Shown: piece after piece, positions 1 to 29,733 of the stretch
How the letters are laid out: every line of letters begins with the position of its first letter
Position numbering within the stretch: the stretch's first letter is position 1
Made by a program: the position numbers and the translations under genes
The notes under the pieces: generated by a model
Databases searched by the model: none
Seen by the model: the letters and a program-made list of their open reading frames with translations, nothing else
What the model was told of the DNA's origin: nothing
Assembly: GCA_964455085.1 (NCBI GenBank)
Contig: CAYVYJ010000003.1
Location: 7,364 to 71,363 of the forward strand
Direction: 5' to 3'
Origin: an uncultured Planctomycetia bacterium
GTDB lineage: Bacteria > Omnitrophota > Gorgyraeia > Duberdicusellales > 4484-171
DNA length: 64,000 bases

Positions 1-110
1 AAGGGGGGCAAAAAGTAAACAAGACCGCTAGTTGCGTCTATTTAAAACATCGACCAAGCGGCATCGAAGTAAAATGCCAACGTGAGCGTTCTCAAGCCTT
101 AAATAGGTTT

Positions 111-314
111 TTGGCCCGAAGAATTCTTGTCAATAAAATTGAAAATCGTATCTGCGGCCGATTATCTGCGGAGCAGAAGCGAATTGAGAAAATAAGAAGG
201 CAAAAACGTAAGCGCTCTAAGCGGTCCAAAGAGAAGCTGCAAAAAGATAAAGTAAAACGTAGCCAAAAGAAGATGGCGCGTTCTTATCGACCACATCCCG
301 AGGAGTTAAGTTGA
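111..314 (+). CDS. Hypothetical very basic Lys/Arg-rich small protein (67 aa); TTG start, coding status uncertain
   Basis: ORF with purine-rich low-complexity KR-rich translation and no recognisable domain; may be non-coding. Confidence 0.25.
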   Translation: MARRILVNKIENRICGRLSAEQKRIEKIRRQKRKRSKRSKEKLQKDKVKRSQKKMARSYRPHPEELS

Positions 315-387
315 TGAAATTGCGCATTTAATTGTATATGTTGAGAAATATGATAAAATAAGTGGCACAGGAAATGAGGTGGATAGC

Positions 388-768
388 ATGAGTTGGGATA
401 AAATTAACCGAAGACGATTCGTAAGGATAAAATTTCCGTTCACGATACATCTCTATTTTCCTCAAGAATCGCCAATCGCCGCGTACACTGAAAATATTAG
501 CGAAGGCGGCCTTAGGGTTACAATTCGCCGAGAACTTAAACTTTCATCTGTAGTTGATTTAGAAATTTACGTAAAATTAAGGCCAGTAAGATGTAAAGGA
601 AAAATTGCCTGGATAAAGAAGTGGGAGAGTAATTATCTTGAAGGTGAAGTTTTCTATGATATCGGATTGGAATTCCAGGGACTGACACCTGGGACTAAGA
701 GCGCAATTAAGGAGCGCCTAGATAGAATCGTAGAGGAAAGACGCAAGAAAGCACAAACCGGCCTTTAA
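388..768 (+). CDS. PilZ-domain c-di-GMP-binding protein
   Basis: RRRFVR (RxxxR) and NISEGG (D/NxSxGG) PilZ motifs; GAGGTGG RBS 6 nt upstream of the ATG at 388. Confidence 0.7.
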   Translation: MSWDKINRRRFVRIKFPFTIHLYFPQESPIAAYTENISEGGLRVTIRRELKLSSVVDLEIYVKLRPVRCKGKIAWIKKWESNYLEGEVFYDIGLEFQGLTPGTKSAIKERLDRIVEERRKKAQTGL

Positions 769-818
769 TCTGGTTTTCGACTTAGATACCTTACCACGAT
801 AATTATAATATTAAAACT

Positions 819-1742
819 ATGAGAAGGTTAAAAAGTGAATTGACTTGGTCATTTTCGAGAAGTCGTCTTTTTTGTGAATGTCGGCGCGCTTACTATTACC
901 ACTACTATGGATCTTGGGGTGGCTGGGAACCTTCTGCTGAGGAGTTAACGCGTCATGTCTACATTTTAAAAAACATTCGTAGTATTGATGCCTGGATCGG
1001 TGATATTGTTCATCAAGTTATTAAATGGGTCTTGGAGAGTAAAGTCGGAGACAATACAACTCTGTTCACGGAAGGCAGAGATATCCCATATGATGAAGCG
1101 AACGCGGCAGTTAAGAAATTATTAATGAAAACCTGGGAGCAGTCACGCAGCAAGGCCTGGAAGAGTAAGGTTAAAGACAATCTCAATCTATTTGAGCACT
1201 ACTACAGGTGTGAACTGGGTCGTAATCAGTTAAAGGTAAAATTAGAGAAAGTACGTAAGAGTATTGATAATTTTTATCACACCGGATTATTGGAAATATT
1301 TTCAAAGTTGCCCCGAGAAAATTTTTTGAGGATTGATCAGTTAGATAGTTTTGATTTTGAAGGAGTAAAGGTGTTTGCAGTTCCGGACTTTGCAGTTTCG
1401 GAGGGTGGCGAATATTTTCTCTATGATTGGAAAACCGGGAAGCAAAACGAAAAGGATATTTGGCAACTATCCTGTTATCAGTATTATGCCGTTAATAAGT
1501 GGGAGGTATCAGCGGAAAAGGTTAAAATAGTCCCGGTCTACCTGACCCAGGAAGAAACTTTGCCCTCACCGATTAAAGCACTGGAACTAGAAAAGGTAAA
1601 AGATTACATTCACCAGAGCTTAAAGAAGATGAGAGATATTCTCATTGATCCTAAGGAAAATATCGCCGACATTAATAATTGCCCTGAAACTACTGAGACC
1701 TGGCGCTGCAAAAACTGTAAATTCCAGGAAATTTGTCGCTAA
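819..1742 (+). CDS. PD-(D/E)XK nuclease, Cas4/AddB(RecB)-like with Fe-S cysteine cluster
   Basis: N-terminal Cys (CECRR), nuclease motifs VPDF...YDWKTGK (DYKTG-like), C-terminal Cys cluster C-x8-C-x2-C-x5-C; no CRISPR or other cas genes nearby. Confidence 0.6.
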   Translation: MRRLKSELTWSFSRSRLFCECRRAYYYHYYGSWGGWEPSAEELTRHVYILKNIRSIDAWIGDIVHQVIKWVLESKVGDNTTLFTEGRDIPYDEANAAVKKLLMKTWEQSRSKAWKSKVKDNLNLFEHYYRCELGRNQLKVKLEKVRKSIDNFYHTGLLEIFSKLPRENFLRIDQLDSFDFEGVKVFAVPDFAVSEGGEYFLYDWKTGKQNEKDIWQLSCYQYYAVNKWEVSAEKVKIVPVYLTQEETLPSPIKALELEKVKDYIHQSLKKMRDILIDPKENIADINNCPETTETWRCKNCKFQEICR

Positions 1743-1805
1743 GGGGTCGTTCTGGACTTAGCCAAAATGTGCTGAAGATACAGCTATACATTTCCCTTTT
1801 GTAGT

Positions 1806-3005
1806 ATGAAAAAATTTAAATACAAAGACTTATTTAAAAAATTGGGCTTACTCCTTGCATCCCTGGCTATACTGTTTGTTACCTTGGAATTATTAGCGCG
1901 GTTATTTGATGTCCCTCCATTGCCACCGCTACCTGGTTATTTTAAATTAGATTCTCAAAACAATCATTACCTAACGCCCAGCGGGAAAAGTTTTTTAAAA
2001 GATAAAGAAGATGGCACATTTCGCATATTTATTTTTGGCGGTTCGAGTATAGAGGCACAAAATTTTCAACTGCTCAGAGAATTATTGACTAAAGAATTCA
2101 CTTCAACGCATTTTGAGGTAATAAACGTTGGTATCAGCTCTTACGGAACAAATAGGATAGTGCCTTTTTTGGAAGAGGCGGCTAAATATAGTCCCGATTT
2201 ATTTATAATATATTCGGGCCACAATGAATTCTTGGAACTGTTTCTGCAAGAAAATATTTACGTTAATTCAATGCAATTCCTATATATTGTACATAAAAAA
2301 TTATCAGGATTTAGAGGGTATGCATTCGTATATCAAGTTTTTAATAAGCTCATGGCGAAGCCTGCCATGCAAATGATGGAACCTATTAGAAATATAGTGC
2401 AAATCTGTTGGACTAACCCATTGTCCGATGATAAAAGAGCTTCAATTTACAAACGCTATAAATCGAATATTTACGAAATGATTAATTTTACAATGGCAAA
2501 AAATATAGAGATAGCTATAAGCACGGTGGCGTATAATTATGTAGATGATAGATATGTTTCGCGACTATATTATAGCTCAAAACATAAAAACACCCAATAT
2601 TCTGAAAATCAGGTCGCTATTGAAAATGTATCTGATGAAGAAGTGCTCGAATTAGCTAATAATCCAAAAAAAGACCCTTATATAGAAAACCGCTTAGGAA
2701 AATACTATTTTAAAAAACAGGATTATAATAAGGCCGCGGAATATTTTGTAAATGCTGCACGAGTTGATTTTCAGCCATTTAGAGCAAATGACACTACAAA
2801 CAGTATAATTAGAAACATTTCGAATGATTTGAATATTCTACTCGCGGATGTGGAGCAAGTGATAATCCAGCACTCTAATCATATGATTCCCGATTTTAAA
2901 TTATTCGATGATTGGTGCCATTTAAATAGAGAGGGTAATAGGCTGATGCAGATTACGTTTTTCAACACAATTAAAGAATCCAATAGGTTAAGGTTAAATG
3001 AATAA
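1806..3005 (+). CDS. Membrane-anchored SGNH/GDSL-like hydrolase family protein
   Basis: N-terminal TM helix; GGSSI block I, SGHNEF block, C-terminal DDWCHLN (DxxH-like) block; visibly AT-rich. Confidence 0.45.
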   Translation: MKKFKYKDLFKKLGLLLASLAILFVTLELLARLFDVPPLPPLPGYFKLDSQNNHYLTPSGKSFLKDKEDGTFRIFIFGGSSIEAQNFQLLRELLTKEFTSTHFEVINVGISSYGTNRIVPFLEEAAKYSPDLFIIYSGHNEFLELFLQENIYVNSMQFLYIVHKKLSGFRGYAFVYQVFNKLMAKPAMQMMEPIRNIVQICWTNPLSDDKRASIYKRYKSNIYEMINFTMAKNIEIAISTVAYNYVDDRYVSRLYYSSKHKNTQYSENQVAIENVSDEEVLELANNPKKDPYIENRLGKYYFKKQDYNKAAEYFVNAARVDFQPFRANDTTNSIIRNISNDLNILLADVEQVIIQHSNHMIPDFKLFDDWCHLNREGNRLMQITFFNTIKESNRLRLNE

Positions 3006-3285
3006 AAAACAATTAATAGTTGCTTGTGTGAGTGTTATTTTATTAGCGATATTTTTAGGATTGAAGACAGGTTTAGTATGGACAACAGTGGTCTCTCAGC
3101 CCGGCCATATTACTAACTCGCGGCATGCAGCACTTTTCTTATACGGCAATCTATTGTTTAGCTCCGATAGCTTTGATTGCCCCAACTTTTTGTGTCCTCT
3201 CTGCGGCTACAAGTATCAGATTATAATCAGCATTCTAACTATAGGTGGTTTATTAATCTATACCTTAAGGAATAAGAAGGAATGA
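2998..3285 (+). CDS. Small Cys-rich membrane protein, hypothetical
   Basis: Two predicted hydrophobic helices; start overlaps the previous stop. Confidence 0.3.
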   Translation: MNKKQLIVACVSVILLAIFLGLKTGLVWTTVVSQPGHITNSRHAALFLYGNLLFSSDSFDCPNFLCPLCGYKYQIIISILTIGGLLIYTLRNKKE

Positions 3286-3369
3286 AATCCCCATTCCTAT
3301 TGCAAAAAAACAAAACGGTGATATACTACAGTTTCTAGAACACCTTGAAAATAAGGAAGATTTAACATT

Positions 3370-3443
3370 GCGCCCGTGGCCCAATTGGATAGGGCGTTTG
3401 GCTACGGACCAGAAGGCTGCAGGTTCGAGTCCTGCCGGGCGCA
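3370..3443 (+). tRNA. tRNA-Arg (anticodon ACG)
   Basis: Cloverleaf: acceptor GCGCCCG/CGGGCGC, D-arm GCCC..GGGC, anticodon loop CTACGGA, T-arm GCAGG-TTCGAGT-CCTGC, discriminator A. Confidence 0.9.
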
Positions 3444-3582
3444 TAGTTTTATTTCTTTTAATATGTCCCTCGTCGCAGGAGATGCTGGGTAAATATCGAA
3501 GAGATTTACCCAGGGCGACTTCGGGATCAATTCAACTACAGTCCGCCAAAGGCGGACTAAGTTCATTGAAGGGGGTAGTCAG

Positions 3583-4056
3583 ATGAAGGTAGTAGTTATT
3601 TATTACTCGCGAGGCGGAACAACCAAGAAGATGGCCGATATAATTGCTGCTCAAATAAAGAAAAACGGCGTGAGTGTCGATATTCTTCCGGTATCAGAAA
3701 TAGAGGCTAAGCAATTACTAGAATATGACGGTATAATTGTCGGTTCTCCTACTTACTATGGAACTTTAGCTGCCCAGATAAAAGAATTATTCGATAAGAG
3801 TGTAGCCTTTCACGGCGAATTAGACGGAAAAATCGGGGCAGCCTTTTCTTCGGCCGCAAATTTAGCCGGTGGAAACGAAACTACAATTTTGAGCATCCTC
3901 GAAGCAATGCTAATCCACGGGATGATCATCCAAGGTGATTATAAAGGTGACCACTACGGTCCGGTAGCAGTAGGTAGTGTGGATGAACGTTGCAGGACTA
4001 ATTGCCAGCGCTACGCCGAAAGATTTGTTAAATTGCTTAAGGAGGTACGATCCTAA
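3583..4056 (+). CDS. Flavodoxin-family protein (WrbA/multimeric flavodoxin-like)
   Basis: VVIYYSRGGTTKKMA N-terminus, SPTYYG motif; GGGGG RBS. Confidence 0.65.
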   Translation: MKVVVIYYSRGGTTKKMADIIAAQIKKNGVSVDILPVSEIEAKQLLEYDGIIVGSPTYYGTLAAQIKELFDKSVAFHGELDGKIGAAFSSAANLAGGNETTILSILEAMLIHGMIIQGDYKGDHYGPVAVGSVDERCRTNCQRYAERFVKLLKEVRS

Positions 4057-4057
4057 A

Positions 4058-4369
4058 ATGATATTAGTAGTTTTGGTTACGGTGCCACAGGAGGAAGCAA
4101 AAACATTAGCCAAAATACTTTTAGAAAAAAGATTATCAGCTTGTGTCAATATTATAAAAGGCCTGGAGTCATTTTTCTGGTGGCAGGGTAAAATTGATAC
4201 CGAAAAAGAATCGCTTTTGATTATTAAAACAACCAATTCTGCTTTTGGGGCACTTAAAAAAGCTATCGTTGAGAATCATTCTTATGAAGTTCCGGAAATA
4301 ATTGCTTTTTGCGTCGACAAGCTGAACCAAGAGTATCAGCAATGGCTGGAAAAGGAAGTGCATGTTTAA
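4058..4369 (+). CDS. cutA: Divalent-cation tolerance protein CutA
   Basis: CutA1-like sequence (ILVVLVTVPQ...SYEVPEII); GGAGG RBS; starts 1 nt after the flavodoxin stop. Confidence 0.7.
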   Translation: MILVVLVTVPQEEAKTLAKILLEKRLSACVNIIKGLESFFWWQGKIDTEKESLLIIKTTNSAFGALKKAIVENHSYEVPEIIAFCVDKLNQEYQQWLEKEVHV

Positions 4370-5066
4370 AGAATGGCTTATCAGTTTGGGAAACTTTTTT
4401 GTACCCTCGACTTTTCTGGGTCTGGGTGCAAGTTTCCTTGCCGGAGTCCTGGCCAGCTTTTCTCCTTGCATTCTGCCTTTAATTCCGATTACATTAGGTA
4501 TTGTCGGTGCAGTATCCGCGTCGACTAGACTGCGTGGCTTTTTGGTAAGCCTAATTTTTGTCTCAGGAGTAGCCGTAGTTTACACTGCTTTGGGGATAAC
4601 TTCAACTTTGTTTGGTATCTTGTGGGGAAAATTTTTTATTAACCCCGTAACCTACTTAGTTTTAGCAATTGTCTTTTTTATTTTAAGTGCTTCTGCTTTT
4701 GGGTTGATTAGATTAAACCTGCCGGTTTCAACTGGTTCGACCTATAGAGCCGGGAAGAGCCTTATCTCGATTTTTATCCTCGGGATGATTAGCGCTTTTG
4801 CGCTTATCCCTTGTAATTTTCCGGTCTTTGGCGCCATCTTAAGTTTGATCGCTGTCAAAGGAAACATCCTTTATGGGGGGTTGGCGCTTTTTCTTTTTGC
4901 CTTTGGCCAGGGAATGCTCTTGATCATATTAGGTACCAGTACTTCCTTAATTCAACGATTGCCAAAGCAAAGTTTAGGGTTTATAATTATACACAAATGT
5001 ATAGGGTTAATTCTGGCAACACTGGGAGTATACTTTGCGGTAAGATTTATATCTTTGTTAGGATGA
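4362..5066 (+). CDS. ccdA: Cytochrome c-type biogenesis / thiol-disulfide electron transporter CcdA (DsbD core family)
   Basis: Polytopic membrane protein with SPC and PCNFP cysteine motifs; overlaps the cutA stop. Confidence 0.7.
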   Translation: MFKEWLISLGNFFVPSTFLGLGASFLAGVLASFSPCILPLIPITLGIVGAVSASTRLRGFLVSLIFVSGVAVVYTALGITSTLFGILWGKFFINPVTYLVLAIVFFILSASAFGLIRLNLPVSTGSTYRAGKSLISIFILGMISAFALIPCNFPVFGAILSLIAVKGNILYGGLALFLFAFGQGMLLIILGTSTSLIQRLPKQSLGFIIIHKCIGLILATLGVYFAVRFISLLG

Positions 5067-5515
5067 AAAAAATTATTCTTCTCTTAAGTCTATTCTGTCT
5101 TTCCTTCTCCTGTTTGGCTGCCGAAAAGAAATTCTCCACCCTGGAAGGTGAAACTATTTCCTATGAAAAAATAATTGCCCAGCCAAAGTCAATTCTCTTT
5201 ATCTGGGCTACCTGGTGTCCTAGTTGCCGTCGTGAACTTACCAAGCTTTTTCAAAAGCGTATATTTTTCGAGGGGGTTGACGTCTGGTATGTAAATACCG
5301 GCGAGAGTAAGTCGATAGTGGATGAATTTGTCAAGGTTAAAAAAATAACCGATTCCGTAAAGAAAAAAATTATCTGCGATAAAAAAAGCCGCATTGCTAA
5401 TAAATTCTCAGTTGCAGCCATCCCTACCTATCTTTTCTTCAAAGACAGCGAGCTTGTTTTCAAATCCTACTTTCTTAATGATAATGTACTAAAAAAAGCT
5501 TTTGGCAGCCAGTAG
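5063..5515 (+). CDS. Thioredoxin-fold thiol:disulfide oxidoreductase (TlpA/ResA-like), secreted
   Basis: Signal peptide; WATWCPSCRRE (WCxxC) active site; ATGA overlap with the ccdA stop. Confidence 0.7.
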   Translation: MKKIILLLSLFCLSFSCLAAEKKFSTLEGETISYEKIIAQPKSILFIWATWCPSCRRELTKLFQKRIFFEGVDVWYVNTGESKSIVDEFVKVKKITDSVKKKIICDKKSRIANKFSVAAIPTYLFFKDSELVFKSYFLNDNVLKKAFGSQ

Positions 5516-5604
5516 AGGAGTTTGGCCGATCAATGCTTAATTTCCTCTAAACGCAAACCCTGCTAATAGTTTCTGTCTCAGCTGCTATCCGACCTAGCTT
5601 TTCG

Positions 5605-5633
5605 TTGACACCCCTAACTTTTTATGATAATTT
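5605..5633 (+). promoter_or_regulatory. Putative sigma70 promoter of proC (TTGACA-N17-TAATTT, TGa extended -10)
   Basis: Hexamers read directly in the proC upstream region. Confidence 0.35.
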
Positions 5634-5644
5634 AATCACCACTT

Positions 5645-6463
5645 ATGAGTCAAAGAAGAAAAGTCGGTATTATTGGTGTGGGTAATATGGGCTGGGCGAT
5701 TGCAAAGGCCCTGGCAGAAAAAACCCAGTATCAAGTTTTTGTTTACGACAAAGATCCTTTAAAAACCCGCAAACCGGAAAAATTTTCTGTCGTAGGAAGT
5801 ACTTCCAAGTTAATTGCAGCGACTAGCCTAGTAATTCTGGCTATAAAACCTCAGGATATCACCACCTTTCTGGCCCAGAATAAACAATATTTGTTAAGGA
5901 AAAAACCTCTTTTAGTCACGATTGCTGCCGGAATCTCCTTAGAATGGCTTGAGAAACAACTAAAAGGTTTAAGCCTAATAAGGATTATGCCCAATCTCGC
6001 AGCAAGGGTAAGAAAGTCATTCTCGTTTGTTTCCGGAGGCAGATTTACTAAAAAGAAAGATCTCTGCACGGTAAAACAAATTTTTAGCCATATCGGGGAG
6101 GTTGTTATGATTAAAGAGAAATACCTAGATAAGGTTACTGCGGTTACTGGTAGTGGTCCAGGTTATGTCTTTTACTTTATGGAATCAATGTATCAAGGTG
6201 CTCTAAAGTTAGGTTTCAGCAAGAGGAAAGCCAAAAAAATGGTAATCCAAACTTTCTTAGGAGCGATAAAGTTAGCCCAAGTTTCCCAGCAGGAGTTTAA
6301 AACATTAATTAAAGGGGTTACTTCTAAAAAAGGAACCACCGAAGCTGCTCTGAAGGTTTTTAAGTGTTGCCATCTTGATCGAGCCATTGTCAAAGGCATG
6401 AATCATGCTTACAGAAGAGCCAGCGAAATTTCAAACAAACTTGTTAAAAACAAAAAGAGGTAA
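5645..6463 (+). CDS. proC: Pyrroline-5-carboxylate reductase
   Basis: KVGIIGVGNMGWAIAKAL Rossmann N-terminus and P5CR-like C-terminal region. Confidence 0.8.
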   Translation: MSQRRKVGIIGVGNMGWAIAKALAEKTQYQVFVYDKDPLKTRKPEKFSVVGSTSKLIAATSLVILAIKPQDITTFLAQNKQYLLRKKPLLVTIAAGISLEWLEKQLKGLSLIRIMPNLAARVRKSFSFVSGGRFTKKKDLCTVKQIFSHIGEVVMIKEKYLDKVTAVTGSGPGYVFYFMESMYQGALKLGFSKRKAKKMVIQTFLGAIKLAQVSQQEFKTLIKGVTSKKGTTEAALKVFKCCHLDRAIVKGMNHAYRRASEISNKLVKNKKR

Positions 6464-8223: not shown

Positions 8224-10962
8224 ATGAATTATAAGGATAGTTTAAATTTACCGCGAACTACTTTTCCGATGAAGGCAAATCTGCCCCTTCTTGAGCCGAA
8301 GACTATTGCCAGATGGGACAACTTGAATATTTACCAGCGGCTGCGAGAAGAGAATAGGGGTAAGAAAAAATTTGTGCTTCATGACGGGCCGCCTTACGCT
8401 AACGGTAAAATCCATATTGGTCACGCTTTGAATAAGCTGCTTAAAGATATTGTTATAAAGTATAAAATCCTCAGCGGATACGATTGCCCTTATATTATTG
8501 GTTGGGATTGCCATGGTTTGCCGGTTGAACACCAGCTATTTAAGGAATTAGGTTTAAGCAAACACGATGTTGAAGTAGGAGCCTTTAGAAAAAAAGCCCG
8601 AAACTATGCTTTAAAGTTCGTTAAACTGCAAAGCCAAGACTTTAAGCACCTGGGAATATTTTCTGATCCTGAACCTTACCTTACCTTAGCTGCAAGCTAC
8701 GAACAAGCAGTAATGAGACTTTTAGGGGATTTAGTGGCTGATGGCTACGTTTATCGCGGTCGTAAACCGGTTAATTGGTGCCAATCTTGTGAAACAGCCT
8801 TAGCTGAGGCAGAGGTAGAATATCTGGATAAGGAGTCGGACTCGATTTATCTTCTTTTTATACTTGATGACGGTAAAAGAGTTTTTACTCACGAGGAAAT
8901 TTCCCAAATTGGCTTCTTGGTTTGGACTACCACACCTTGGACTCTAATCTCTAACGTTGCAGTGGCTGTGCATCCAAAATTAGAGTATTGTTTAGCCCAG
9001 CTTAAGGAGCAAAAGATTGTTTTCGCTAAAAATTTGCTACCCTTACTGGAAAAAAAGTTTAAAACTAAATTTAAACTATTGAAAACATTCGCCGGTAAGG
9101 ATCTTGAAGGACTAAAGCTTAAGCACCCGTTTATTAAACGAGAATCGCCGATAGTCTTGGCTGATTTCATCTCTCGAGAAGAGGGCAGCGGCTGTGTACA
9201 TATTGCCCCTGGCCACGGAGCAGAAGATTTTTCCCTAACTCATAAATACGATCTTGATATTATTATGCCCCTAGATGAGAAAGGCCGATTCCAGGAACCC
9301 GAGGAGTTTAAGGACAAAAACGTGGGAGAAGCTAATATCGCAGTAATAAAAAAACTAAAAAACAATCAGTCGTTAATTCTTCATGAGACAATAAACCATT
9401 CTTACCCGCATTGTTGGCGTTGCAAGGAACCAATAGTTTTCCGGGCTACCTTTCAATGGTTTTTGAATGTTGACCATAAGAAATTACGGGTCAAGTCGCT
9501 TAAGGAAACAGAGAAAGTTAGATGGATTCCTTCCGCCGGCAAAGAACGAATGAGAGGAATGTTAGCTACCCGACCGGATTGGTGCCTTTCCCGTCAACGA
9601 CTCTGGGGTGTACCGATTCCGGCAGTGAGATGCAATGATTGCCAGAAGGTATATTTGACTAAAGAAATTATTGATAAGGCTGCTGAAATCTTCAGCCAGA
9701 CTGGTTCTGATTCTTGGTTCAGTCTGGACTTGGATAAATTTCTTCCTGCGAAGTTTAACTGCACCTGCGGCAGTAAAAGACTCCTAAAGGAATTTGATAT
9801 CCTTGATGTTTGGTTTGAGTCCGGTGCAAGTTTCTTGGCTGTAGTAAAGAATAACCCTGAGCTTAAATTTCCGGCAGATTTATACTTAGAAGGTAGTGAT
9901 CAGCACCGAGGCTGGTTTCAGGTCTCGCTTATACCTTCGGTGGCCAAGGAAAAATGCGCACCTTTTAAAACAGTGCTAACCCATGGCTTTGTGGTTGATG
10001 CTTCAGGAAAAAAAATGTCAAAATCCCAGGGAAATGTGATTGCCCCTCAGGAGATTTCCAGGAAATACGGAGCGGAGATCTTACGTCTCTGGGCAGCTTA
10101 CGCTGATTACAGCGAAGATGTCAAAATTTCCCAAGAAATAATTAAACAGTTGGCAGATATGTATCGGAAGATGCGTAATACCATCCGGTTTATTTTGGCC
10201 AATATATCTGATTTTGAGTTAAAAAATTGCCGATTAGCTCATAACCATTTATTAGAAGTTGATAAGTTCATGCTGGCTAAAGCCTTGCGTTTTAATCAAG
10301 AAGTCATATCTTACTATGAAACCTTTAGTTTTTACAAAGTCTGCCAAAAGATTTTTAATTTTTGCAACCTTGACTTGAGCTCTTTTTATCTTGACATTTT
10401 AAAAGACAGACTATATACTTTTTCTCGATATTCAGCTGCTCGTCAGAGTGCCCAATTTGTTCTTTACCATATCTTGAATATTTTACTTAAGCTGATTGCA
10501 CCGATTTTATCCTTTACTGCCGAGGAAGCTTATCTTGCCTGGGATAAGTTAGAGGAAAGGGAAGTTTCGATTTTCCTTTCTTCCTTAAAGGTTAATTATC
10601 CAAAGACTTGGGACAGTGAAGAACTTCTTAACCGCTGGGAATCTATTCTTAGCTTACGTAACCAGGTTCTCAAGGAAATTGAAACCAAAAGAGTCAGCGG
10701 TCTGATTGGAAGTTCCCTTGAAGCATGCGTTCTTATAAAGTGTCGGGGCAAAGATTACCCTTTCTATAAGGAGTATCGTGATGCTTTTGCAGAAATCTTC
10801 ATAGTCTCTTCGGTCACAATCGAGGAAGGAGATTTTGCAATCAAGATATCTAAAGCTGGTGGTAAAAAGTGTCTACGCTGTTGGAATTGGAGCGATAGTG
10901 TGGGGAGAAGTTCAAAACATTCTAACCTATGCAGTAAGTGCCAAGAGGCTTTAAAAGCATAA
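8224..10962 (+). CDS. ileS: Isoleucine--tRNA ligase
   Basis: HIGH motif (PYANGKIHIGHALN), KMSKS motif (KMSKSQGN), C-terminal Zn-finger CLRCWNW...CSKC. Confidence 0.95.
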   Translation: MNYKDSLNLPRTTFPMKANLPLLEPKTIARWDNLNIYQRLREENRGKKKFVLHDGPPYANGKIHIGHALNKLLKDIVIKYKILSGYDCPYIIGWDCHGLPVEHQLFKELGLSKHDVEVGAFRKKARNYALKFVKLQSQDFKHLGIFSDPEPYLTLAASYEQAVMRLLGDLVADGYVYRGRKPVNWCQSCETALAEAEVEYLDKESDSIYLLFILDDGKRVFTHEEISQIGFLVWTTTPWTLISNVAVAVHPKLEYCLAQLKEQKIVFAKNLLPLLEKKFKTKFKLLKTFAGKDLEGLKLKHPFIKRESPIVLADFISREEGSGCVHIAPGHGAEDFSLTHKYDLDIIMPLDEKGRFQEPEEFKDKNVGEANIAVIKKLKNNQSLILHETINHSYPHCWRCKEPIVFRATFQWFLNVDHKKLRVKSLKETEKVRWIPSAGKERMRGMLATRPDWCLSRQRLWGVPIPAVRCNDCQKVYLTKEIIDKAAEIFSQTGSDSWFSLDLDKFLPAKFNCTCGSKRLLKEFDILDVWFESGASFLAVVKNNPELKFPADLYLEGSDQHRGWFQVSLIPSVAKEKCAPFKTVLTHGFVVDASGKKMSKSQGNVIAPQEISRKYGAEILRLWAAYADYSEDVKISQEIIKQLADMYRKMRNTIRFILANISDFELKNCRLAHNHLLEVDKFMLAKALRFNQEVISYYETFSFYKVCQKIFNFCNLDLSSFYLDILKDRLYTFSRYSAARQSAQFVLYHILNILLKLIAPILSFTAEEAYLAWDKLEEREVSIFLSSLKVNYPKTWDSEELLNRWESILSLRNQVLKEIETKRVSGLIGSSLEACVLIKCRGKDYPFYKEYRDAFAEIFIVSSVTIEEGDFAIKISKAGGKKCLRCWNWSDSVGRSSKHSNLCSKCQEALKA

Positions 10963-29365: not shown

Positions 29366-29733
29366 CGGGGGTGCATGGACTCGACTTAGAGGTTAGATGA
29401 AGTGGTTGCATGCCGTAGGGGTAAGGCCGAACGTATCCGGGCTTACAAAACACAAAGGCAAATACACAATTTGCTTACGCAAACACACCTGAGTTAGTAG
29501 AAGTAAACTAACCAGGGCTCTTAAATTTTTGCCTCAGGAAATTTAAGAGTTCGGTTATGAGGCTAGAAATAAACCTCTGGCTTTGAGGGTTTATTTCGAA
29601 ACAAAACAAAGTTGCTTTCTGGGGAATCCCGCCTTCTGGAGTCTCCAGAAAAAAGATAAAGAAAAGGCTAAGCATGTAGGAGCTGTTTGTCAACCCTTTA
29701 AGGACGCGGGTTCGAATCCCGCCACCTCCACCA
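29366..29733 (+). ncRNA. ssrA: tmRNA (SsrA transfer-messenger RNA)
   Basis: 5' GGGGGTGCATGGACTCGAC and 3' GGACGCGGGTTCGAATCCCGCCACCTCCACCA (T-arm, acceptor pairing with the 5' end, encoded CCA); ~368 nt. Confidence 0.85.

Follow-up and report, generated by a model that had tools for sequence, protein, structure and literature searches.

Does the first 3.3 kb of a 64,000-nt stretch of Omnitrophota DNA (contig CAYVYJ010000003.1; the whole stretch is called the window here) form one accessory unit, or does it only look like one? Up to its tRNA-Arg gene, this locus encodes a PilZ protein, a stand-alone iron-sulphur (Fe-S) nuclease of the Cas4 family and a membrane-anchored SGNH hydrolase. A sequence-only reading had taken these genes, together with a basic mini-protein at the left end, for an AT-rich accessory cluster that encodes no housekeeping function and has the look of a signalling-controlled effector module. 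We found that the cluster is not a single unit and is mostly conserved Omnitrophota chromosome. Very probably, two unrelated parts lie side by side, core chromosome at 3..1742 and a variable slot on the near side of the tRNA gene at 1743..3368. The locus holds limited new biology, consisting of recognisable ordinary genes and a small tRNA-side cargo, and is a case of a window edge and short-range adjacency mimicking a module.

Gene order carries the first half of this answer. We searched the window proteins by tblastn against 80 fetched loci that contain the nuclease (comparison loci are labelled L and numbered; L001 and L002 are public contigs identical to the window, and samples SRR24302423 and SRR31802796 contain identical contigs). 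In close relatives, whose nuclease is ~65% identical, the order is ArfB-like gene, PilZ, nuclease, tRNA-Arg, flavodoxin, (CutA), DsbD and thioredoxin-like gene, and where contigs extend, the block continues through P5CR, PNP, PfkB and IleRS. Loci located through the PilZ protein (L089-L091 and L094) show the same gene order, as does the closest relative, L095, with a nuclease 71% identical. Altogether the order is kept in eight distinct relatives that reach both PilZ and nuclease (L003-L006, L089/L090, L094 and L095). Those nuclease homologues that carry a name are from Candidatus Omnitrophota, with Ca. Susulua stagnicola among the relatives. In the best-covered relative, L003, neighbouring genes are 53-78% identical and the nuclease, at 66%, is mid-range; PilZ is 59-67% identical to its syntenic relatives, where measured. 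The L014 locus, with a nuclease 58% identical, still places this gene before tRNA-Arg, flavodoxin and CutA, and has a patatin-like phospholipase and ThyX upstream; the nuclease therefore travels with the downstream block and not with PilZ.

The ArfB-like, PilZ and nuclease genes are thus conserved core chromosome. The segment 3..1742 would be vertically inherited, its genes having remained neighbours through shared descent within one clade, and the trio would not be a functional module. Every relevant gene in 1..3700 is on the plus strand.

The left edge of the window cuts through the first gene of the block. Frame 3 is open from base 3, with a translation that starts GGQKVNKT, and the supposed mini-protein gene at 111..314, which opens with TTG, is in the same frame: it is the basic tail of an RF-1-domain protein. 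The 3..314 fragment matches Pfam RF-1 (2.8e-16, 59.9 bits, cut-off 35), and with a translation-related GGQ gene present, the statement that the stretch lacks housekeeping functions was wrong. On the identical contig L001 the gene is complete (124 aa, 3510..3884) and has a CDP-alcohol phosphatidyltransferase gene and others upstream; in relatives the protein has 140 aa. Its final 55 residues are 42% lysine plus arginine. With its short length (124-140 aa), a GGQ catalytic domain and a strongly basic C terminus, the protein has the architecture of ArfB (YaeJ), which is a GGQ domain and a basic tail in ~140 aa. It differs from ArfB in that only the N-terminal 34 residues align to the NCBIfam model, the remainder fitting the GGQ domains of RF1/RF2 better. 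The protein would free peptides from stalled ribosomes by means of its basic tail. In the more distant Omnitrophota loci L010, L015, L016 and L020, an ArfB-like gene is found 0.9-2 kb upstream of the nuclease and is encoded on the opposite strand; in L010 a cation-efflux gene separates the two. A loose ArfB-nuclease neighbourhood therefore outlasts the adjacency of PilZ.

Base composition divides the locus at the same place. Against a GC content of 0.406 for the window, 111..1805 is at background (0.396) and 1806..3285 falls to 0.341. The description of the locus as AT-rich therefore applies to the right-hand stretch and not to the left, and its emphasis on 1806..3285 was apt: no other 1200-bp window has a GC as low as that of the SGNH gene (z = -3.8). 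Among the 56 genes of the window, its GC (0.333, z = -3.3) and its GC at third codon positions (GC3; 0.318, z = -2.8) are extreme, and the open reading frame (ORF) of 95 aa that follows deviates weakly (0.368). The PilZ gene (0.405) and the nuclease gene (0.397) are both unremarkable in GC and GC3 among the 56; their GC is within 0.5 standard deviations (s.d.) of the other genes, and GC and GC3 are within ~1.2 s.d.

These results bear on the view that the full 3.3 kb arrived by horizontal transfer as a single island integrated at tRNA-Arg, which we consider extremely unlikely. The span does end at a tRNA gene, as had been noted, and its overall GC of 0.370 (z = -2.7) is below that of all same-size windows except near-overlapping ones. 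This low value, however, comes entirely from 1806..3285; the 5' genes are syntenic with the flanking core in relatives and as diverged as it is, and the first 'gene' of the supposed island belongs to a translation factor whose remainder is encoded upstream of the window.

The second half of the answer lies in the interval from the nuclease stop codon to tRNA-Arg(ACG). The tRNA gene has the same position in L003-L007, L014 and L095; in L005, L006, L007 and L014 it begins 57-175 bp after the nuclease stop, compared with 1.6 kb in the window. The content of this slot varies. No gene occupies it in L005-L007, L014, L094 and L095, a minus-strand NYN-domain gene does in L004 and L089-L091 (L004:4208-4789, L089:6725-7306), and L003 has a small unrelated ORF and a C-terminal fragment of a tyrosine recombinase (9557-9763). 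The fillers are AT-rich, with GC 0.32-0.37 versus 0.385-0.41 for their loci. By tblastn, the SGNH gene and the 95-aa ORF of the window are absent from all 80 nuclease loci, from L089-L091 and L094, and from the closest relative, L095. The term 'accessory' thus fits 1806..3285, which is deviant in composition and absent from relatives, and does not fit the 5' half, which is syntenic and core-like. In this lineage alone, the slot beside tRNA-Arg(ACG) would have taken up ~1.5 kb of AT-rich DNA.

The same evidence can be set against the opposite direction, in which the SGNH gene and the 95-aa ORF were ancestral at the site and were lost in the relatives. This alternative agrees with the lack of integration scars in the window and with the AT-richness of the SGNH family wherever it is found, but we regard it as quite unlikely: both are missing from every relative examined, including the closest (71% nuclease identity), which would take many independent and precise losses, and the SGNH gene is confined at this locus to one tip. 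Gain is further favoured by its low GC3 (2.8 s.d.), by the unrelated contexts in which its homologues occur, and by the other cargo, integrase fragment or tRNA-fragment scars in the slots of relatives.

Several observations weigh against a core block next to a newly gained insert in the slot of this lineage. The window itself has no integrase, attachment (att) repeats or tRNA fragment; 1743..3368 is not flanked by direct or inverted repeats, neither end of the tRNA gene was found a second time in the window, and alignment of the junctions with relatives gave no recognisable breakpoint homology. With no marks of integration in the window, we therefore infer both the mechanism and the direction, gain and not loss, from distribution alone. 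In three other organisms, SGNH homologues have a GC content 2-5 points lower than that of their own loci, so AT-richness is partly intrinsic to the family, and synonymous codon usage of the window SGNH gene is only ~1 s.d. from the mean; composition suggests an insertion here and is not by itself decisive. On the core side, the ArfB-like protein scores 41.8-47 bits against the NCBIfam ArfB equivalog cut-off of 100 (NF006718), for which reason we call it ArfB-like and not ArfB, and within the clade the adjacency of PilZ and nuclease, on the same strand with spacers of 50-86 bp, is operon-like too.

Compared with known tRNA-linked hot spots and genomic islets, the slot is similar in that its content varies between relatives at one tRNA gene and its cargo is AT-rich, so that variable content and deviant composition are both found here; among the relatives, L003 also retains the remnant of an integrase, and L007 and L094 have duplicated tRNA ends. 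It differs in that the window cargo is 5' of the tRNA, spans only 1.5 kb with two ORFs, and comes with no integrase, att repeat or tRNA fragment, the integrase and repeat evidence being limited to the remnants in L003, L007 and L094. Coordinates of all features are collected in Table 1.

Table 1. Features of the locus, in window positions
Feature	Position	Strand	Basis or remark
ArfB-like GGQ (RF-1 domain) peptidyl-tRNA hydrolase (predicted), C-terminal 103 codons	3..314	+	Pfam RF-1; gene truncated by window start
Single-domain PilZ protein, 126 aa	388..768	+	Pfam PilZ PF07238; GTG 379 is an alternative start
Stand-alone Cas4-family (PDDEXK_1, ACE-like) Fe-S nuclease, 307 aa	819..1742	+	PDDEXK_1, four-cysteine site
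Variable slot, nuclease stop codon to tRNA-Arg(ACG)	1743..3368		GC 0.343; lineage-specific AT-rich insert
Membrane-anchored SGNH-fold esterase (predicted), 399 aa, helical and TPR-like insertions	1806..3005	+	Lipase_GDSL, fold match
Putative orphan ORF, 95 aa, N-terminal hydrophobic helix, four cysteines	2998..3285	+	ORF list
tRNA-Arg (anticodon ACG)	3369..3444	+	ARAGORN; Rfam tRNA 66.5 bits

Relatives also show traces around the slot and its tRNA genes. The NYN-domain slot gene weakly matches a TOTE conflict-system domain as well. In L007, 11 nt from the 5' end of tRNA-Arg(ACG) occur a second time (~933-943), ~115 bp upstream of the gene (1050-1125), and in L094 ~21 nt of the tRNA 3' end do so ~150 bp downstream of tRNA-Arg; these partial copies resemble scars left by earlier integration or excision. 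A second gene, tRNA-Arg(TCG), follows the nuclease after 33 bp in L095 (6957-7030), with tRNA-Arg(ACG) after ~195 bp; in L003 (8939-9014) it likewise comes first, then tRNA-Arg(ACG), and in the more distant L025 (10089-10162) it is upstream of tRNA-Arg(ACG). The slot of the window lacks it, no copy was found elsewhere in the 64 kb, and the insertion may have displaced it.

The inserted SGNH protein has one N-terminal transmembrane helix (about residues 8-36), the conserved catalytic blocks and the SGNH fold, in agreement with its original identification as a membrane SGNH hydrolase. Its Pfam scores are borderline (Lipase_GDSL 23.9 bits versus 23.6, a second model 27.6 versus 32.9, plus one TPR). 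Blocks I (G78-G79-S80), II (G109) and III (G138-H-N140) and the block V histidine (H372) are invariant in 18 homologues, down to 25% identity, and the block V aspartate D369 is nearly so. In a structural model (predicted local distance difference test, pLDDT, 87.3), Foldseek found an acetyl xylan esterase and GDSL acylhydrolases (E ~1e-6; template-modelling (TM) score 0.66-0.72 on the target), so both the blocks and the fold of SGNH/GDSL hydrolases are present. The protein has the SGNH fold and the conserved Ser, Gly, Asn and Asp-x-x-His in common with the acetyl xylan esterase 7ddy and with 4iyj and 4ppy, two GDSL acylhydrolases from Bacteroides. It is about twice the size of these enzymes, is only just at the Pfam cut-off, and differs further by its N-terminal membrane anchor, a helical insertion (~141-231) and a TPR-like insertion (~277-342).

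Homologues are sparse and patchy (64 matches, the best 66% identical), many with long TPR arrays. Elsewhere they occur among genes for pilin-like proteins, PMT_2, GT2 glycosyltransferases, cellulase and paralogous SGNH-TPR proteins, surroundings that suggest a role in modifying the envelope or glycans. The esterase would face outward and probably act as a deacetylase or acyl-esterase on an envelope glycan or lipid. No homologue in the other genomes examined stands beside a PilZ gene or a PD-(D/E)XK nuclease, and we found no link that would tie the SGNH gene to its PilZ and nuclease neighbours. The 95-aa ORF, a putative gene for a small membrane protein, shares 8 nt with the end of the SGNH gene, including its stop codon. 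L002 carries a gene call at its position, its tblastn matches are confined to the identical contigs L001 and L002, and it has no match in Pfam, NCBIfam, PADLOC or PHROGs.

Within the core block, the PilZ protein is a predicted receptor for cyclic di-GMP (c-di-GMP) with intact binding motifs. Its identification stands: the Pfam PF07238 match is 2.4e-15 (57.1 bits, cut-off 22.5). Translation probably starts at ATG 388, giving the N terminus MSWDKI common to the orthologues. In the RxxxR motif (R9..R13), R8, R9 and R13 are invariant among orthologues and R10 is nearly so; in the (D/N)xSxxG motif (N36-I-S-E-G-G41), N/D36, S38, G40 and G41 are conserved, with S38 replaced by Gly in 3 of 17 sequences. 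A score above the Pfam cut-off, both motifs, a length of ~125 aa and no other domain are all features of single-domain PilZ c-di-GMP receptors. The difference is a narrow orthologue group of 25 clusters from one clade, which are 54-68% identical except for one at 39%; that relative adjoins a second PilZ gene and a YmdB-like phosphoesterase and no nuclease.

The proposal that PilZ and nuclease are a c-di-GMP-controlled effector pair, a switch for defence or DNA processing, came with the acknowledgement that the adjacency might be chance. Some features fit such a pair. The genes are on the same strand and 51 bp apart, their adjacency is retained in the eight distinct relatives, and the PilZ binding motifs and nuclease catalytic residues are intact. 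That adjacency, however, is no better conserved than the ~ten surrounding housekeeping genes and hence carries no specific signal. We took the ORFs immediately flanking the nuclease, from 63 loci on its upstream side and 62 on its downstream side, and compared them with Pfam and PADLOC. A PilZ gene directly precedes the nuclease in 4 of the 63, each a close relative, and flavodoxin directly follows it in 4, in a nuclease family found in at least 596 genomes. The remaining neighbours are heterogeneous (EPSP synthase, response regulators, MutY-like, cation efflux, CBS and others), and no pairing of PilZ and nuclease relatives was found outside the one clade. L014, moreover, retains the nuclease and the downstream block and not PilZ, and no gene overlap hints at translational coupling. 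The pair is syntenic and core-like in composition, and the two genes do not pair elsewhere; the effector module is therefore unsupported beyond adjacency, and we think such a pair very unlikely, inferring from these distributions that the two are not coupled.

Searches for a defence system around the pair agree with this. Among the first 25 families listed on each side, no defence family matches more than two nuclease neighbours on either side, and none is an Argonaute/Piwi or cas family. A PADLOC search of the five proteins of the locus gave no system; its sole match was of the nuclease to an Argonaute-associated Cas4-like model, with no Argonaute found, and PilZ, the SGNH protein and the 95-aa ORF had none. 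Neither cas families in the neighbouring genes of the window (Pfam) nor CRISPR-like repeats in its 64 kb were found. No cyclase adjoins PilZ or the nuclease, so that the operon of synthase and effector that marks second-messenger defence is not seen here, and a crude motif scan detected no GGDEF or EAL motif in window ORFs of at least 150 aa. A more specific version, in which the ArfB-like gene, PilZ and nuclease form one transcription unit in this clade and PilZ gates the nuclease by c-di-GMP, appears highly improbable to us; if true, it would be the first c-di-GMP link to a Cas4-type DNA nuclease.

The nuclease itself is the part of the locus with the widest reach. As first described, it is a stand-alone Fe-S PD-(D/E)XK nuclease: it matches Pfam PDDEXK_1 at 9e-19, and C21, C297, C300, C306, D190, D203, K205, Q216 and Y220 do not vary among 28 sequences with identities down to 34%. 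The pattern expected of Cas4 in the broad sense, D...(D/E)xK...QxxxY with 1+3 cysteines, is present, and a conserved N-terminal segment, WSxSR...C..Y..YY..W.GW, is the family's own. Scores are below the cut-offs of Cas4 models proper (TIGR00372, 27.5 bits versus 65; PF01930, 15.3 versus 22.7). An AlphaFold2 model (pLDDT 92.3) matched PDB entries in the order ACE1 crystal structures 9iab/9iac (TM 0.58-0.66), AdnA nuclease domain, Cas4 SSO0001, Dna2 and Exo5. In the structural alignment, identity to ACE1 is 14-17%, and a sequence profile aligned with the ACE1 chains over no more than the C-terminal half, at E = 2e-4.

ACE1 is a 4Fe-4S endonuclease that threads single-stranded DNA (ssDNA) through a narrow channel (PMC12094033). 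The window nuclease resembles solo Cas4 and the ACE1/ACE2 proteins (Bobadilla Ugarte et al. 2025, PMC12094033) in its single domain of ~300 aa, its D...DxK...QxxxY active site and the one N-terminal and three C-terminal cysteines of a 4Fe-4S 'iron staple', and ACE1 is its best structural match, alongside the AdnA nuclease domain. It differs from ACE1 in its low identity and its own N-terminal segment, and from ACE1/ACE2 and CRISPR Cas4 in having no prokaryotic Argonaute (pAgo), cas gene or CRISPR array nearby.

This likeness raises the further alternative that the nuclease works with a pAgo whose gene lies in another part of the genome, as an ACE-type partner that prepares its guide DNA. The full-length match to the PADLOC model Aga_Cas4-like_Nuc (PDLC02406; 2.3e-23, 81 bits) and the rank of the ACE1 structures point that way, and some ACEs do have a pAgo encoded elsewhere in the genome (PMC12094033). 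The relationship to ACE1 is remote, however, in both identity and profile coverage, the first 25 families listed for the 63 upstream and for the 62 downstream neighbours include no Argonaute model, and many ACE-like proteins occur in genomes without any pAgo (PMC12094033). The broad, single-gene and apparently vertical distribution instead resembles that of solo-Cas4 genes (PMC5704561), and we consider a role as a pAgo partner very unlikely.

Solo-Cas4 genes are mostly inherited vertically, are under ordinary purifying selection and occur disproportionately often among environmental bacteria with small genomes; the pfam12705 branch has no major CRISPR-associated branches (PMC5704561). The window nuclease, encoded outside CRISPR loci and with a distribution that looks vertical, fits the description of solo Cas4/PDDEXK_1 (Hudaiberdiev et al. 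2017, PMC5704561) and is probably active on ssDNA ends. The analogy with ACE1, AdnA and AddB makes threading and cutting of such ends, in repair or DNA processing, its most likely activity. In a scan of one genome per species, at least 596 genomes encode a relative, from Omnitrophota, Planctomycetota, Myxococcota, Acidobacteriota, Verrucomicrobiota, Lentisphaerota, Latescibacterota, Methylomirabilota and other phyla. In an exhaustive HMMER search, with clustering at 50% identity, 218 clusters passed E ≤ 1e-30 and 1100 passed E ≤ 1e-10; of the best 150 matches listed, almost every one is a stand-alone protein of ~300 aa. We found no biochemical work on any member of the subfamily in the literature. 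A more modest reading of what is new here would be that this ~300-aa family, always alone and spread over at least 596 species and about ten phyla, is an uncharacterised housekeeping enzyme for processing ssDNA ends, related to ACE and AdnA. The analysis thus marks out a large, well-conserved and biochemically unstudied subfamily of stand-alone Cas4/ACE-like Fe-S nucleases, which may serve either repair or defence, a choice already recognised for solo-Cas4.

A MutY-like gene (HhH-GPD plus NUDIX_4) lies directly upstream of the nuclease in 2 of 63 loci, both distant, a weak hint of DNA repair; MutY-like genes probably account for two PADLOC 'nicking endonuclease' matches. Searched against PHROGs for phage origin, the nuclease gave only generic 'exonuclease' families and the other proteins gave no match. 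We also considered tRNA proximity as a family-wide property of the nuclease and rejected it, since it holds in 13 of 24 Omnitrophota loci versus essentially none of 55 loci from other phyla (L026-L082). The tRNA genes within ~1.2 kb of the nuclease in Omnitrophota (L003-L025) are Arg-ACG, Arg-TCG, Lys-CTT, Ser-GCT and Ser-GGA, and this proximity is probably inherited synteny in small genomes.

Other signals in the window are few. Rfam at permissive thresholds over 1..6000 showed no structured RNA besides the tRNA, and terminator-like matches were at chance level. Promoter-like matches were in modest excess (17 versus a shuffle mean of 10.2, s.d. 2.7), on a model from which Omnitrophota promoters may differ; the sole usable hint is a promoter-like site at 3300..3327, before the tRNA. 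Between tRNA-Arg and the flavodoxin-like gene are two short hairpins with no T-run, CTGGGTAAATATC/GAGATTTACCCAG and GTCCGCCAAAGGCGGAC, at 3485..3513 and ~3541..3561, which may be processing or termination signals. Further along, a transfer-messenger RNA (tmRNA) gene at 29367..29733 has an unusual predicted tag peptide, ANTQFAYANTPELVEVN, which ends in VN and not in the common LAA-type C terminus.

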